Shown here: one piece after another, positions 21,493 through 57,557 of the stretch
Layout: every line of letters starts with the position of its first letter
How positions within the stretch are numbered: the stretch's first letter is position 1
Assembly (NCBI GenBank): GCA_001606155.1
Contig: LODT01000016.1
Coordinates: 449,870-513,869, forward strand
DNA length: 64,000 nt
Source of the DNA: Tieghemostelium lacteum
Lineage: Eukaryota
Direction: 5' to 3'
Position numbers and translations under genes: made by a program
The notes under the pieces: model-generated
Databases searched by the model: none
Told to the model about the DNA's origin: nothing
Seen by the model: only the letters and a program-made list of their open reading frames with translations

Positions 21493-24101
<2,609 letters not shown>

Positions 24102-24199
24102 AATGTAGATAAATTGAGTAAAAGAATTGAATTGGAGAAGGATAGGAATAAATTTTGATAAATTATTGTTTAATTTAGATAGGATATTACTGAGAATAA

Positions 24200-25270
24200 A
24201 GTTTAAATGAAGATGAATTGATGGGGGGAAAAACAAACAATGAAATTACTGAAAACACACAAATATTTAAATTTCTTTTTGGGGAATAATTATTATTTTT
24301 TTTTAAAAAAACACGGTTTTAAATAAAGTAGGGGTATATATTGAGGAGGTGATATTTTTGTGAAGGAGTTTGGAAATATAAATATAAAAAGAAACTAAAA
24401 TTCTTTAAAAAAGGGGGTATCTTTTGGCGAGAGAGAAAGAATGAAGAGAACTCGATTTAATGATTTTTTAAAATACTTTTAGGACAGGACTTATAAGACC
24501 CAAAGTCCTGTTCAAATTTAAAGTATATAAAAAATTTTGAAGGGGGTTTGTTAAGAATTGTTTATCGTCGAGACGATTTTTTTAGTACTTATACTAAATG
24601 TTATAGTATTACTAAAAAAGTTGACGGAAATAAAGAAGGAGGATAATTTAAATGATAAAAAAGAGATAAAAAGTTAGGGAAGAGGAGAAGATACGAGAGA
24701 GAATTTCACATAAGGGGGCAGTGTAATAGAATTTTAGAATTCAAGTGATTTTTTCATCAAAAGTTTGTATATAAGTATAGAGGAGAGAGAAATTTATGTA
24801 AATATATTATTTTCATTAAATTTGATCAAGAATATTTATCTCTACCTTTAAAGTTTGTTTATGAGACAAAAAATCTTATAATGAAAAAAAAAAAATATTA
24901 TCTTCTTCAGTGAAAAAACAGATCAATTTTTTTAAATTTACAATGGCTTCACCCCCCTTCAACTTTATTGTTTTTTAGTCCTTCATTTTTTCGTAAAATA
25001 AAAAGAAGAAAGATATTTTTGAACATTAAAAAAATAAAGGAATATTCGATATCATTTTCAAACCATTTCCCATCTTATTTATCTATTGTCATCATTTATT
25101 TAGAATATTACAACAACACACTAAAATAAATCCAAATTAACTTTAGATCTTTAAATAAATCAATAAATATCCATAGATACACCTCTCTAAATTAGACCAA
25201 TTGGGTTCCACCGGTACTATTTATTATAATTATAAATTTGCTTTTGGGTGGGGGGTGTCAATGAAGTGCT
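24200..25270. promoter_or_regulatory. upstream region of the Zn2Cys6 TF gene, containing multiple G-rich (G-box-like) elements and a small palindrome
   Basis: GGGGGG (24224), AAGGGGGT (24410), GAAGGGGGTTTG (24541), AAGGGGGCAG (24712), CACCCCCCTTC (24951), GGGTGGGGGGTG (25246) sit in an otherwise AT-rich intergenic region. The hairpin CAGGACTT-N10-AAGTCCTG is at 24484-24509 and CGTCGAGACG at 24568. Confidence 0.3.
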
Positions 25271-50892: not shown

Positions 50893-52647
50893 TTACATAC
50901 GGAATACACCAAAACCATCGGAAGGAACATTAATTGGTTGATTTAAACATGAGGATAAAGATAAGGCGATAACTTTTCTGGTATCTTGTGGATCAATAAC
51001 ACCATCATCCCAACAACGTGCAGAGGAGTAGTATGGAGAACCTTCAACTTCATATTTATCTTGAATTGGTTTTTTGAAGGCATTTTCTTCTTCAGTAGTC
51101 CAAGGTTTCTTACCATCCTTTGCAAGATTGTCTTTTTGAATTTGAGAGAGTACAGAGGCAGCTTGTTCACCACCCATAACTGATATTTTAGCATTTGGCC
51201 ACATGTAAAGGAATCTTGGTGAATAGGCACGACCACACATACCATAATTACCAGCACCAAATGAACCACCAATGATCACTGTAATCTTTGGAACTTTTGC
51301 AGTACTTACAGCCATAACCATTTTAGCACCATCTTTTGCAATACCTTTAGCCTCATAGGATTTACCAACCATGAAACCAGTTATATTCTGTAAGAATAAC
51401 AATGGGATACCTCTTTGATTACATAATTCAATAAAATGTGCACCTTTAACTGCAGATTCGCTGAATAGAATACCATTGTTTGCAATGATACCTACAGGCA
51501 TTCCATGAACTCTTGCAAAACCACAAACTAAAGTTTGACCATACAATTCTTTGAATTCATCAAATCTACTTCCATCTACAATTCTAGAGATCACCTTTCT
51601 GACATCGAATGTCTTTCTTAGATCGCTTGGTACTATACCAGAAAGATCTGAAATTGGGTATAAAGGCTCTTCAACAGGGGTCAAAGTTACAGAAGGTTGT
51701 TTCTTTCTATTGAGATTCGAAACAATTCTTCTGGTTATTGAAAGTGCTTCTTGATCATTTCTAGCATAGTGATCTGTTACACCTGATGTCTTGCAATGTA
51801 GATCAGCACCACCTAATTCTTCAGCAGTTACAACCTCACCAGTTGCAGCCTTGACCAAAGGTGGACCACCTAGAAATATAGTACCAGTACCTTTAACAAT
51901 AACTGATTCATCAGCCATTGCAGGTACATATGCACCACCAGCTGTACAACTACCCATTACAACTGCAATCTGTGGAATTCTCTTTGCAGACATGTTAGCT
52001 TGATTAAAGAAAATTCTACCAAAATGATCACGATCTGGGAAGACATCAGCTTGTCTTGGTAAATTAGCACCACCAGAATCAACTAAATAGATACATGGTA
52101 AGTTATTCTCCTGTGCAATTTCTTGTGCTCTAAGATGTTTCTTTACAGTTATTGGAAAGTATGTACCACCTTTAACAGTACTATCATTGGCAACTATAAC
52201 ACATTCTTGACCTTGAACTCTACCTATACCTGTAATGATACCTCCAGCAGGTACATCTTCACCGTACATTTCATGACCAGCCAATTGAGAAAACTCTAAA
52301 AATGATGATCCTGCATCTATCAGTGCATCAATTCTCTGACGTGGTAGTAACTTTCCTCTGGAAATATGTCTTTCATTCAGTTTTGCTCCACCTCCCAATT
52401 TTACCTTTTCAATTGTCATTTTTAGTTTGTTTACTGTTTCTGTCATCTTTTCTAAATTCTCTTTAAATTCAGCAGAGTTCTTATCTACACTGCCATCTAG
52501 AATATTAATAGTTTTATCATCAGAGTAATATCCTCTTTTTTGATAAAATAGACCATTACTACTACTACTGCCGATTAAACCACTATTATTTAATTTAAAA
52601 TTAAATAATTTATTACTTTTGGATATTAAATTATTTAATCTCAACAT
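50893..52647 (-). CDS. mccb: 3-methylcrotonyl-CoA carboxylase beta subunit (carboxyltransferase)
   Basis: [113 protein letters not shown] is near-identical to MCCC2. Probable start MLRLNN at 52647 (mitochondrial presequence). The ORF extends to 52683. Confidence 0.9.
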
Positions 52648-52796
52648 TATATGTAATTTTCGAAAAGTGATGAAAATGAACACACTCTAGATGATTTCTA
52701 AATCAAAAATAAAAAAAAAAAAAAAAAAAAAATAAAAATTTTTTATTTTATGTTCACAATGAGAGCATATCCTGAAAAGGATTAGAAAGGATTTTA

Positions 52797-53302
52797 TTAA
52801 AGTTTTGAATCATTTAATTCTAGTAATAGAATTTTTTCTTTTGATTTAATCTGGTCAACCATTTTCAAATAAGTATGGTCATTAGTAACTAAATTATGGT
52901 CTAAATGATTTCTATGGAATATAGACAACCAATAGACAACCAAGAAACTTCTTAAAATATCTTTTGGAAGATATGAAGTTGATAAACCATTATGGTGTGG
53001 TAACATTACACTATTTGAATTTGGACTATTACTCAATGGAATAGTTGATGATATGGATAGTTTAAGTGGTGATTTATCAGTTGAACTACTAGTACTACTA
53101 CTTCCACTAGTACCATGTATCAAATGTAAAGAATCAAATGATAATTTTGGTAGTTGTGTACTATATAAAACACTAAGTAATGATGCTTTTCCATTTGGTG
53201 TTGTTGTAGTTCCTAGTGATGATCTAGGAGGTGAATAATATTCTAAATCTAATAGTAACCAACCTTGTTTTTGTAATTCAAAACTATAAGGTAATTGAAT
53301 GA

Positions 53303-53339
<37 letters not shown>

Positions 53340-56010
53340 GTTATTATTATTTGGTGGTATATGATGATTAAATATATTTTGATATCTATTAATATTTTCA
53401 TTTAGATTGGATATTTTAAAATGGTAATTGGGAATGATGGAAATGGAATTCTCTAGGAAAATGGCATTTGGTCCTGAAATGTGAGTTTTAGCTCTTGCAT
53501 TTCTATTTAGAATCTCAACAGATTCTGATAATAATTCTTTACATATATCCCATCCTTTATACATTGATATACTAGAATGACCATGTAAAAATCCACCATT
53601 GGTTGATGGACTTGATGACATTAGTATAGGTGATACTGATGATGATGTTGATGGACTACTTCCAGGTGATATCTGTACATTTTCCATTGAATTACTATTT
53701 GATGGCAATGAAGATGATAATACACCATCATGTACAACATGTCTATCTAAAAAGACACTAGATATCAAGCCACAATTACTTTGTAAATAATATGAAAACA
53801 CAACAGCACCAACTATAAAAGGTACTAGTGAATCATCTCTATATGCTAAGGATAGAAGTATATGTAAATCTTCATTGGAGGTTACTCTATTCTTTCTAGT
53901 TAACAATGCTTGTAGTTTATCTTTAGGTTCAATATCACTGGAAACTGGAAGTGAACTATAAAATTGATCAAAAAGATCTTGATGGAAATTCTGAGCTAGA
54001 TCGAGGAACATGAAGGGTCTTTGCCATGGCATGTGTAGTAATGGAATCTTTTCTCTTCTCATGAGAGAATCCATCATTTTTCTGTAATCGTGGTCATCTT
54101 CAAACCAGTATCCAGTACGTGCACATGTATTCTTCCAGAATGAACTAATAAAGTTGATTAAGAGTGTGTTGGGTAGATAATGAAGTTCTCTAGAGACACC
54201 ATTCTTGGAGGTTGATGGTGATTTTACCATATCTAGATTCTGACGTTCCAATGGGATTCTTGGTGTGATTAGAACTATTAAATTCAATGATTTACTAGGT
54301 TGTTTATCATAGGATAGAGGAGGTTGTAGATAATGAAAATCCACTTTTCTCCATCCCATTTTTTCTAAAAATTCTTGTTTATAAGAAATCTCTGCAATTT
54401 CTGATGATTCTTCAAAAATAGTACCACAATTTTGTGAGTGGTTTTGGTAACTTGTCTCTAAGAATATAGCATTACATCCAGCTAAATGACCACAATCTAC
54501 TGCGTTCTGTTCGAGGATATCAACAGCTCTTTGTATCAGTGCTCTTGCCATACGTTCTGCACGGTTATTAGGACCACCTCCGACTAAGAGATAAGTCAAT
54601 AGACCACAATTGACAGACTTGTGATACTCAAATGCCAAACCACCACAGATAATAGGTTCTTCACCTTGGTTATCTTGGTCTGGGTACCGTAGTGCTACTA
54701 GTAAATGAAAATCTTCAGTTTGAGTTTTGTTTTGTGAATTTGTAGATGTGGTGTTTGGTAACATGTTTATCCAACTTTCTAAAGGTTCAAGTTCATCAGA
54801 ACCTGAGAAATTAGGTACCAGTACATTATTATAGAACTTTTGTATCAGAGGTTGACTATTGAATGTGTCTCTCAGGTCTACTAATGTCCATGGTCTCTCC
54901 CAAGGAAGGTCTAAAAGAGGTATTCTGTCTCTACGATTCACTTGATCCATCATTCTCTGATAGTCTATATCCAACTCCCACTGGTTTTGGTCTAATCTCG
55001 AACAACAACTATCCCAAAATACCCTCAAAAAGTTCTTTAATAATGTAGATGGTAAATAATATCTCTCTTCTTTACCTAATGTATATTTTGGTATATTAGG
55101 TGTAACCAAACATGTCAATAATAAATCTTTACATTTTCCTGCTTCTTTTGATAATGGTGGTTGAATATAATCAAAATCTAATAATTTAATTCCTAATTTA
55201 TGAAATATACTATGACGTCTATTTTTACAAAGTAATATAAATGTGGGTGTTAGTGGGGGTTTATAAAACATGGTTTTTTAATGTAAATAGTTATGATGAA
55301 TACAAACTTTACAGGATCCATTACATCCTCTTCTGGTGAGACTTTTTCTGAAGAATTTGTTTCAAGAAATATTGCATTACAGCCACCTAGATGACCTCTA
55401 ATTCTACCATTTTCCATTAATCTCTCAGTAGCCTCTTTTAGAAGAGTACCAGCTAGACCTTGGCCTCTATACTCTGAACTAACTAATAAATAAGTTATGC
55501 AACCACAATTTATAGTTGGATAGAACTCAAATACCACACCACCCATGATATCTGATTGTTGTGGGTTTTGTTTCATATCAGGTGGACATAGAGCTAAAAT
55601 GATATGAAAATCAATGTCACTGCCTAACATGTTTAAATCTGTTCTATTACTTTGATTATTAGTACTACCCTGTTGATTAAGATTTAATGGATCAACTGAT
55701 AATGTATCACTATTGCTAAATGATAAATTCTCTTGAAACATTTCAACCCAATTATCTAAAGGTTCAAGTTCTAGAAATATAAACTATTAATAATCTATTA
55801 TATTAATACTTTATATTATTATCCAAACATACCATCTTCTTTTGGAAAATTAGGTACCATTAATTCTTCATAGAATCTTTTTAATACCGTATAATCGTAA
55901 TCTTTTCTTAAATCTATAAAATGTGGTGTGATTTTAGTGTGTTGTTGTTGTCCACCACCACCACCACCATTTTGAGTACTATGATTTCCATTCTGATGAT
56001 CAGATTTCAT
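52797..56010 (-). CDS. protein made of 3-4 tandem divergent GNAT-like (acetyltransferase-fold) modules; exons 56010..55833, 55769..55308, 55218..52797, with an apparent 1-nt frameshift near 55740
   Basis: Module 1: FYEELMVPNFPKEDE|LEPLDNWVE..FQENLSF...GGVVFEFYPTINCGCITYLLVSSEYRGQGLAGTLL...GCNAIFLET. Module 2: FYNNVLVPNFSGSDELEPLESWINML...ICGGLAFEYHKSVNCGLLTYLLVGGG...GCNAIFLETS. Module 3: ...IVGAVVFSYYLQSNCGLISSVFLD...GPNAIFLENS. Introns are 63 nt (GTATGT..tctAG) and 89 nt (GTTTGT..aatAG, containing CACTAAC). The LEPLDNWVE frame and the MFQENLSF frame are offset by one base at GTTGAATG (55744-55737). Confidence 0.55.
53291..53352. repeat. (ATT)n microsatellite encoding poly-N in the GNAT-repeat protein
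   Basis: ttattattattattattattattattattgttattattatt. Confidence 0.8.
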
Positions 56011-56300: not shown

Positions 56301-57557
56301 ATGTCTTCCAATTATAATTCACACAGAAATAATAATCATAAAGATAATAGAAATTACGATAAAGTTCATAGTGGATATTATAAGAGAGAAAGTTACAAAA
56401 AGAGGCATCCCAATCACTATAAAAGTGATAATTCCCACAATAATTATGAGAATAATGAATGGAATCCAATAAACCGATATAGTAATCAGAATCCAAACTA
56501 TCATTATCATTATCATTTTCAGGATTATCAACAATATTATGATAATCCAGATCCAAATCAATATTCACAATTCTACCAATCAGAAAACTATAGGCAGAGT
56601 GATTCTGTTGAATATTATAATCATTATTATAATGACACCTATAATAGTAATAATCTATCACCCACACACTATTCAAAGAAAAAAAATGACTATAATAGCA
56701 ATTACAATGAATGGGGTCGTGTTAACAATTCAAATATTTCAAATTTTCAATACTTTGGTTCAAAAGAAATTGTACCAAAATCATATCATGTAAAATATGG
56801 TAGCAACATTCCTGAGATAGATAACGACATGGATTTTTTCACAGAATCTACATCATTTATAAATTTACCACAAAGTATTAATAGTATCTATCGAGCTGCT
56901 GGTGTGTTATTGTACAGTATTCACAATAAAGAAATTCAATTTTTATTGGGATGTGAAGACAGAACTGAAAAACTAAAGAAACGGCCAAACAAGTTCAATT
57001 CACAACCATTTGTTTTCTTACCATTTGGTGGAAAAGTAGAAGAAGGTGAATCTGTGTATTTTACTGCATTGAGAGAACTCAATGAAGAAACTGGTTATAT
57101 ATTTCAAAATTCCTTGTCTCAATTTAAAAAAGAAATGAAACAATCTATAAAATATTGGATTCATGATAGTAAATATCTACTGATATGTTTAGAGATTCCC
57201 TATGATGAGGATCTTCCTAAAAAGTTTCAGGCTGTTGATAAAACAATGATGGCACATACAGATCAGGTGTATTTGGAGTGGGTAAAAATGGAAAATCTCT
57301 TTGCTGCCACCTATACGAATCCACAATTTATAAAAAATGATGGAACAACTGGTGAATGTCTGTCGTTCTTTGCATCAATGTTTCCTAGAATTAAACCTGT
57401 ATTCAATCACCTGTTAAATAATGTTAGAAATAAAGAAAAAATTGAAGAAAAGAAAGAACAGAGAATGGAACATATAAAATTAAATAATGATAAACAACAA
57501 AAAGTTCAAAAATCATTTAAACCTAATCCAAAAAAGGAATTTTCAAAAAAGAAATAA
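56301..57557 (+). CDS. Nudix hydrolase with an N/Y/H-rich low-complexity N-terminal half
   Basis: Nudix box GGKVEEGESVYFTALRELNEETG (GX5EX7REUXEEXGU). Single ORF. Confidence 0.7.
   Translation: MSSNYNSHRNNNHKDNRNYDKVHSGYYKRESYKKRHPNHYKSDNSHNNYENNEWNPINRYSNQNPNYHYHYHFQDYQQYYDNPDPNQYSQFYQSENYRQSDSVEYYNHYYNDTYNSNNLSPTHYSKKKNDYNSNYNEWGRVNNSNISNFQYFGSKEIVPKSYHVKYGSNIPEIDNDMDFFTESTSFINLPQSINSIYRAAGVLLYSIHNKEIQFLLGCEDRTEKLKKRPNKFNSQPFVFLPFGGKVEEGESVYFTALRELNEETGYIFQNSLSQFKKEMKQSIKYWIHDSKYLLICLEIPYDEDLPKKFQAVDKTMMAHTDQVYLEWVKMENLFAATYTNPQFIKNDGTTGECLSFFASMFPRIKPVFNHLLNNVRNKEKIEEKKEQRMEHIKLNNDKQQKVQKSFKPNPKKEFSKKK

Follow-up and report, generated by a model that had tools for sequence, protein, structure and literature searches.

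Tandem GNAT proteins in which one of the copies is inactive are already known in principle, and MshD, VipF and clavulanate ORF14 are examples. The locus described here lies in 64,000 nucleotides of Tieghemostelium lacteum contig LODT01000016.1 (assembly GCA_001606155.1, positions 449,870 to 513,869 of the forward strand), and this whole stretch is referred to as the window. A gene on the minus strand of the window encodes a protein of 1020 residues that consists of three GNAT-like modules, of which the first alone has the canonical motifs, and that ends in Ser-Lys-Leu. We propose that the product is a peroxisomal amine N-acetyltransferase with built-in pseudo-subunits, probably acting on a polyamine or diamine, and we assign this reading a probability of about 0.5.

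The three modules abut one another (Table 1). The initial annotation claimed at least three divergent GNAT-like copies in tandem in one polypeptide and suggested that the translated protein be compared with itself, and such comparisons with BLASTP and hhalign recovered three homologous modules. In composition-corrected BLASTP, modules 1 and 2 are 35% identical over 317 columns (E=1e-60), modules 1 and 3 align in two segments (E=3e-9 and 1e-6), and modules 2 and 3 align with E=9e-11 and 2e-9. Comparison of seven-orthologue alignments, one per module, with hhalign gave E=5e-64 over 266 columns for modules 1 and 2, 1.1e-31 for modules 1 and 3 and 3.7e-34 for modules 2 and 3. A hidden Markov model of the family with 266 positions is matched over nearly its whole length by each module, with scores of 355, 337 and 190 bits for modules 1, 2 and 3. 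An internal repeat far beyond chance is confirmed by these sequence comparisons.

The make-up of the repeated unit has to be revised. It had been described as a linker followed by a GNAT core, with a fourth partial linker at the C-terminus. The linker motif is indeed present in every module, but the order is the reverse, as the linker is the C-terminal part of its module, and the supposed fourth linker is merely the end of module 3, so that the modules number three, all of them complete, with nothing left over. This extension is modelled as two helices and a strand in module 1, where the predicted local distance difference test score (pLDDT) is mostly 95-98 and falls to 80 at the extreme end, and as helix, helix, strand at residues 966-1013 in module 3. 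Single-module relatives of 245-330 residues also carry the linker motif (F..W...D.DY..M.D....IPLL..PW.RP). Since the motif is seen three times, at the C-termini of the modules, and also in stand-alone relatives, the repeat unit is two N-terminal helices, a GNAT core and a C-terminal two-helix-and-strand extension. In a model of the full-length protein (pLDDT 72.8, predicted template-modelling score 0.59) the order of strands and helices is identical in all three modules, and disorder is limited to the low-complexity insertions at residues 78-109, 712-766, 809-849 and 914-958.

It is module 1 that places the protein in the GNAT superfamily. This module scores 28.4 bits against Pfam Acetyltransf_1, for which the cut-off is 20.7, and its structure model (pLDDT 89.8) has the mixed beta-sheet, the beta4/beta5 splay and the flanking helices alpha1-alpha4 of the GNAT fold. 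In the best GNAT structure matches no more than 168 residues of the 296 in the module are covered, and the N- and C-terminal additions are mostly unmatched. When PDB sequences were searched, profile A1 matched only AAC(6')-I (E=0.002); the matches of module 1 in phmmer, GRK5 (E=0.02, spurious) and dopamine N-acetyltransferase (E=1.2), were discarded. The Pfam check proposed for each of the modules was positive for module 1 and negative for modules 2 and 3, although both are homologous to module 1, and an NCBIfam scan of the three modules returned sub-threshold noise only. Neither Pfam nor NCBIfam has a model for the extension or for modules 2 and 3. The assignment of modules 2 and 3 to the GNAT superfamily would follow only from their full-length homology to module 1.

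The modules differ in the motifs that are associated with catalysis. Motif A (Q/R-x-x-G-x-G/A) is satisfied by module 1 only, and RAERMA in module 2 and KGWDIC in module 3 fail to match it. The motifs quoted in the initial annotation are found in module 1, as GGVVFEFY..NCGCITYLLV..RGQGLAG..GCNAIFLET, and its claim that the canonical acetyl-coenzyme A (acetyl-CoA) pyrophosphate loop is restricted to that module has held up: RGQGLA in module 1 is replaced by RAERMA in module 2 and by an insertion followed by YKGWDIC in module 3. A second signature, ETNSxxKVxxxxDVMDPxxRH, follows beta5. It is common to the single-module relatives and, within tandem proteins, is mostly confined to the module that bears motif A. 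In module 2 the loop reads GGGPNN-RAERMA, the central Gly is gone and so is the post-beta5 signature. Residues 712-766 of the insertion in module 3 have a pLDDT below 50. The loop states of the three modules are conserved across six dictyostelid orthologues: motif A of module 1 is kept in all six, R[AS]E[RN]M[AGS] is retained in module 2 of five (P0017 is deleted there), and Y[KR]GWD[IV] is found again in module 3 of P0001, P0007 and P0017. These losses suggest that modules 2 and 3 are catalytically inactive.

Two other core motifs, NCG before beta4 and GCNAIFLE at beta5 (in the T. lacteum protein, residues 147-149 for NCG and 189-191 for the GCN of the second motif), recur in most modules, degenerate copies included, and may reflect folding, residual CoA binding or redox chemistry. 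Their Asn, Gly and Phe residues are invariant or at least 90% conserved, Cys is the consensus residue, and in module 3 of the T. lacteum protein Pro replaces the Cys of GCNAIFLE.

A first protein search found 31 relatives, none identical to the query, and the best had 56-57% identity. The best relatives are dictyostelid proteins that are 42-57% identical over 84-98% of the query, and six of them are orthologues with the same colinear three modules. Identity among the orthologues is 56-73% for module 1, 51-67% for module 2 and 27-36% for module 3. Because the values for module 2 are close to those for module 1, module 2 is, by its sequence conservation, a constrained pseudo-module rather than a decaying copy. 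Relatives with four modules were also found, and a sequence from Echinamoeba exundans falls in the cluster of one of them (P0011). Their module 2 has RGERMA or SGERMA, and the degenerate loop R[AG]ERMARALI is common to it and to module 2 of the T. lacteum protein. Against the four-module proteins, module 1 of the query scores best on their module 1, and module 2 on their module 2 or 3. The common loop and these pairings therefore indicate that at least the duplication that gave modules 1 and 2, together with the degenerate loop of module 2, predates the split between the two groups.

The family is large. An exhaustive search with a profile, covering 1.84 billion representatives, gave 1443 relatives with E<=1e-3, 836 of them with E<=1e-10, and many have a single module. 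The named sources are protists: Stygamoeba, Diplonema papillatum and a record labelled ANDGO, which we take to be Andalucia godoyi. Annotations of these are all hypothetical or generic GNAT, and word-indexed protein searches turned up neither a characterised member nor a D. discoideum identifier. Nothing on a poly-GNAT family, on a fusion between a GNAT and a polyamine oxidase (PAO) or on a Dictyostelium peroxisomal GNAT was found in the literature searched. The initial annotation could assign the protein to no described family, and Pfam, NCBIfam and the literature searched likewise gave none. Tandem proteins of about 600 residues have two recognised modules, the dictyostelid orthologues (878-1101 residues) have three, proteins of about 1100-1300 residues have four, and a set of dictyostelid paralogues (P0003-P0006, P0008 and P0010; 1467-1784 residues) has five. 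The motifs were counted in 32 proteins with between two and five recognised modules each. Of the 117 modules in total, motif A is present in 25, the DVMxPxxR signature in 35, and the two together in 22. In not one of the 32 chains do the two occur together in more than a single module. The place of the fully canonical module differs from protein to protein, and it may be the first, as in proteins with two to four modules, the third, or the fourth of five. In the five-module paralogues it is the fourth, and the other four modules have partial motif A variants (RNMGLE, KGKGLD, SGKGIG). The modular architecture and the rule of at most one fully canonical module per chain are solid.

Could modules 2 and 3 be active all the same? 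Non-canonical binding of CoA in these modules would give the protein three active sites or specificities. Module 2 is conserved nearly as well as module 1, every module keeps NCG and GCNAIFLE, motifs that lie along the CoA cleft in GNATs, and module 1 of the four-module relatives is without the central Gly yet has the other signature. However, modules 2 and 3 lack motif A and DVMDPxxRH, a signature kept by all single-module relatives, the 60-residue disordered insertion sits exactly at the loop of module 3, and the full ancestral signature occurs in at most one module per chain across the 32 proteins. Three active modules are improbable on this evidence. At the other extreme, the protein could be no enzyme at all and could serve as a peroxisomal binding or scaffolding protein made of GNAT-like repeats, for example as a sensor of CoA or polyamines. 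Two of its three modules are degenerate. A purely non-enzymatic role is nevertheless very improbable, as module 1 keeps all features of the single-module relatives, motif A included, and is the most conserved of the modules.

A location in the peroxisome is predicted from the C-terminus, a feature absent from the initial annotation. The final -SKL fits the tripeptide [SAC]-[KRH]-[LM] of a type 1 peroxisomal targeting signal (PTS1) and stands at the extreme C-terminus. When a PTS1-like end is defined as [SAPCTHVNG][KRHN][LMI], it is present in 39 of 174 family proteins, and nearly all of these end in xKL after a variable spacer. Four of the six three-module orthologues have such an end (PKL, AKL, PKL and SNL); the other two end in LLD, in a record marked partial, and in SNK. 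All eight complete four-module proteins have one (AKL, AKL, VKL, SKL, PKL, SKL, PKL and HKL). The five-module dictyostelid paralogues have no PTS1, and five of the six end in -DK; to judge from these ends they are presumably in a different compartment.

The nature of the acceptor is suggested by the genes and domains with which the module is associated. Ten cluster representatives (clustered at 50% identity) have one module followed by a C-terminal Pfam Amino_oxidase domain (P0082, P0090, P0091, P0098, P0103, P0118, P0135, P0154, P0165 and P0169), and four of the ten end in -SKL or -AKL. These sequences come from metagenome and Logan assemblies. The fusion P0098 is at locus L001 6001-8361, and one fusion is an unbroken 786-codon gene on a 155-kb contig. 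The oxidase domain of P0091 is nearest to the group of LSD1, spermine oxidase, plant PAO and PAOX, and aligns with spermine oxidase (7oxl) over its full length with E=3.9e-47. No other fusion partner found in the family searches recurs. Fusions to adenylate kinase (P0074), cofilin/ADF (P0113, P0207) and a PH domain (P0042) are rare.

The family also has a bacterial branch, for which a genome scan with alignment A3 found 47 loci in many phyla; a scan of bacterial genomes with P0141 alone gave no match. At five of the 47 loci an amine oxidase gene adjoins the module gene, and these loci belong to three lineages, Nitrosospira/Nitrosovibrio, Saprospiraceae and Cyanobacteriota. By a rough estimate well under one such locus would be expected by chance. 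Other bacterial neighbours were not used as they do not recur: an ABC transporter, NMT1-like, glyoxalase, sulfatase, TPMT, TetR, GFO/IDH/MocA oxidoreductase and AAA/TPR genes. Proteins of the bacterial branch (L002-L048) have one module and then a conserved domain of about 450 residues, without a Pfam match, that contains the motifs GISPYLxxPH and LPNLFHYxTER. A hydrophobic stretch at their C-terminus looks like a membrane anchor in the sequence.

AtPAO2-4 of plants are peroxisomal. It has been reported that D. discoideum contains 1,3-diaminopropane, putrescine and spermidine at millimolar concentrations (PMC11428646), and that amoebozoans have PAOs of clade IV, a clade that includes the plant AtPAO2-4 group (PMC7576179). 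The acceptor is probably an amine, and a polyamine or diamine is favoured, because fusion to an amine oxidase recurs and amine oxidase genes adjoin the module gene in bacteria; this is guilt by association from single-module relatives. No specific affinity in sequence or structure to SSAT, SpeG, PaiA or Dpa above other GNATs was detected. A protein with the same architecture and location could act on another acceptor, such as an amino acid, a protein lysine or N-terminus, or a xenobiotic amine, or it could use a longer acyl-CoA from beta-oxidation. Together we regard these alternatives as rather unlikely, because a flavin amine oxidase of the PAO/LSD1 group is the only recurrent fusion partner and bacterial neighbour found, which points to a small amine and to acetylation coupled to oxidation.

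Why would an enzyme carry two modules that have lost the catalytic motifs? It is proposed that the single polypeptide behaves like a hetero-oligomer whose GNAT-fold subunits are built into one chain, and that the C-terminal -SKL would direct its import into the peroxisome. Module 1 would be the working enzyme; its beta4-alpha3 loop, R-G-Q-G-L-A, would bind acetyl-CoA or a different short acyl-CoA, whose acyl group the module would pass to an amine. Modules 2 and 3 would be pseudo-enzymes that keep the GNAT fold and the core strands (NCG..., GCNAIFLE) and have lost the pyrophosphate loop and DVMDPxxRH. Most likely they are permanent structural partners of module 1 or provide it with substrate-binding or regulatory surfaces, a role that may resemble that of the second subunit or the inactive second domain of other GNATs. 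A polyamine or diamine would be the most likely acceptor, and the protein may carry out the acetylating step that is coupled to a flavin polyamine oxidase in the peroxisome.

Several observations weigh against this proposal. NCG and GCNAIFLE are kept in modules 2 and 3, which could mean that these modules have residual ligand binding. The motif A consensus is not kept by some active GNATs, and module 1 of the four-module proteins has RG[LM][QSNR][ILV]G, so the loss of Gly in modules 2 and 3 is no proof that CoA binding has been lost. The predicted template-modelling score of the full-length model gives moderate confidence in the geometry between modules. The Asp at position -4 (...NDSKL) is a suboptimal context upstream of a PTS1. 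The fused oxidases are as near to LSD1 as to the PAOs, and the fusions involve single-module relatives and not the tandem proteins, so that the substrate may have changed.

The gene consists of three exons that join into 3063 nucleotides in frame. The coordinates and the two introns of the initial annotation match this model exactly, and the three-exon model is confirmed by the open reading frames (ORFs) of the sequence and by alignment to relatives. The window is AT-rich, with 25-36% G+C, and has short introns and poly-Asn and poly-Gln tracts. The proteins that it encodes have their best relatives in dictyostelids, as expected of a social-amoeba type of genome. The junction at intron 1, FPKED/ELEPLDNW, is colinear with orthologues P0001, P0002 and P0007. 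At intron 2 the junction DVMDPVK/RHSIFHKLG reads without a gap, and DPVK/RHSIFHKLG matches DPAKRHAIFHKLG in the orthologues. The donor of intron 2, GTTTGT, differs from the usual GTAAGT/GTATGT type and is backed by frame and homology; among the donor and acceptor pairs tried, the GTTTGT pair was the sole one that kept the frame. The N-terminal leader is missing or different in the orthologues, and its residues 1-23 have a pLDDT below 50.

The triplication could in principle be an artefact of the gene model, in which separate genes have been joined or modules 2 and 3 are the decaying tail of a pseudogene. Intron 2 does have a non-consensus donor. However, exon 3 is a single unbroken ORF of 2.4 kb that runs from the end of module 1 through the whole of modules 2 and 3 to -SKL, and the modules are therefore not separate adjacent genes. 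The six orthologues with the same colinear modules speak against an artefact as well. A pseudogene tail was rejected as module 2 is strongly constrained and the targeting signal is located at the far end of module 3. An artefact of either kind is scarcely credible.

Table 1. Features of the three-module GNAT gene, its neighbourhood in the window and flavin amine oxidase genes at bacterial loci
Feature	Coordinates	Strand	Protein residues	Description
Whole gene	52797..56010	-	1-1020	3 exons, 3063 nt in frame, 1020 aa (from ORF list and in-frame splice)
Exon 1	56010-55833	-		178 nt, start ATG at 56010
Exon 2	55770-55308	-		463 nt
Exon 3	55218-52797	-		2422 nt, includes stop 52797-52799
Intron 1	55771..55832	-		62 nt, GTATGT..AG
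Intron 2	55219..55307	-		89 nt, phase 2, unusual donor GTTTGT..AG
N-terminal leader	55930..56010	-	1-27	Gly/Gln-rich, low complexity, outside the modules
Module 1	54891..55929	-	28-323	canonical GNAT module, contains both introns
Module 2	54015..54890	-	324-615	conserved pseudo-GNAT module
Module 3	52800..54014	-	616-1020	divergent pseudo-GNAT module with low-complexity insertions
C-terminal extension, module 1	54891..55061	-	267-323	YYLP...FW...DYQRMMDQ...IPLLDLPWERP; linker copy 1
C-terminal extension, module 2	54015..54182	-	560-615	linker copy 2
C-terminal extension, module 3	52812..52976	-	962-1016	the supposed fourth partial linker
Motif A loop, module 1	55451..55468	-	161-166	R-G-Q-G-L-A, beta4-alpha3, fits [RQ]xxGx[GAS]
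Post-beta5 signature, module 1	55212..55363	-	196-216	ETNSSEKVSPEEDVMDPVKRH, split by intron 2
Degenerate motif A region, module 2	54546..54581	-	427-438	GGGPNNRAERMA
Motif A position, module 3	53541..53741	-	707-773	60-aa Ser/Pro-rich insertion (707-766), then YKGWDIC (767-773)
Poly-Asn tract	53307..53351	-	837-851	15 N in module 3, within disordered residues 809-849
C-terminal Ser-Lys-Leu	52800..52808	-	1018-1020	PTS1-type signal
NUDIX ORF	56301..57557	+		418 aa
Carboxyltransferase gene	50893..52683	-		596 aa
(TTG)57 array	22707..22879			long poly-Gln tract on the minus strand
ORF containing the (TTG)57 array	22041..24236	-		731 aa
Flavin amine oxidase neighbours	L041 6194-7408; L024 374-1558; L032 2439-3791; L019; L036			beside the module gene at bacterial loci

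The gene is flanked by two others. An ORF with a Pfam NUDIX match (E=3.5e-8) and an Asn/Tyr-rich N-terminus is head-to-head with the GNAT gene and lies 290 bp from the GNAT start codon. It has no PTS1 and ends in ...SKKK. CoA and acyl-CoA are substrates of some Nudix hydrolases. The downstream neighbour on the same strand encodes a carboxyltransferase (Pfam Carboxyl_trans, E=7e-163) that looks like the beta subunit of methylcrotonoyl-CoA carboxylase. A functional tie between this gene and the GNAT gene was considered and rejected, as there is no evidence for it. Elsewhere in the window, the GC skew peaks sharply (+0.41) at 22-24 kb because of a (TTG)57 array, and the ORF that contains the array also has a Zn2Cys6-like cysteine motif (CLNCRTSKVACDQQRPCTRCTKHG).

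Neither GNAT enzymes nor pseudo-enzyme domains are new in themselves. No account was found, in the literature searched, of a family that joins three to five extended GNAT modules of which, as a rule, one is fully canonical. Current Pfam and NCBIfam models miss the domain formed by what is added to the GNAT core on its N- and C-terminal sides. The proteins with one to five modules also provide a natural series in which to study the fixation of pseudo-enzyme subunits within a chain. In dictyostelids and other protists the polyamine pool is unusual and the route of its breakdown has been little mapped, and the recurrent oxidase fusions and the peroxisomal signal make the protein a candidate, open to direct test, for the acetylating step in that breakdown. 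A wider proposal, which is put forward tentatively and as more doubtful than probable, is that amoebozoans and other protists have an undescribed, ancient poly-GNAT family with one catalytic module and one to four conserved pseudo-modules, whose members with a PTS1 are the missing acetylating partner of peroxisomal polyamine oxidase. In that case polyamine back-conversion or 1,3-diaminopropane metabolism in these organisms would use an acetyltransferase that is unrelated to SSAT and that is fused to the oxidase in some lineages.

How does the protein compare with known systems? Mycothiol synthase MshD (M. tuberculosis Rv0819, PDB 1ozp) is among the closest known systems. When the full-length model was compared by Foldseek, the top matches were ORF14 of the clavulanate pathway (2wpw), Legionella VipF (6wqb, 7wx5) and the histidine acetyltransferase HisAT/NAT16 (9emp), and these span two modules of the query over about 420-450 alignment columns. 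Like the query, all three have duplicated GNAT domains with unequal roles. The T. lacteum protein has, as in the MshD/VipF/ORF14 type, multiple GNAT domains in one chain with the catalytic motifs in one only, the other domains being probably inactive. The putative GNAT of Bacteroides thetaiotaomicron (PDB 3ey5), a single domain of 176 residues from structural genomics, covers the GNAT core only. Neither common descent with the solved tandem GNATs nor their domain arrangement was recognised. Packing of the modules as in known tandem GNATs was rejected on comparison of the model with PDB structures, unless the geometry between modules in the model is unreliable. The query thus differs from the known tandem GNATs in copy number, in its extended module, in predicted packing and in the targeting signal. 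A second likeness is to a pathway. The logic proposed here is the same as that of SSAT1/SSAT2 and peroxisomal PAOX, in which a polyamine is first acetylated by a GNAT and the product is then oxidised by a PAO-family flavin enzyme, and the single-module relatives that are fused to oxidases of the PAO group and end in -SKL or -AKL parallel this SSAT/PAOX pathway.

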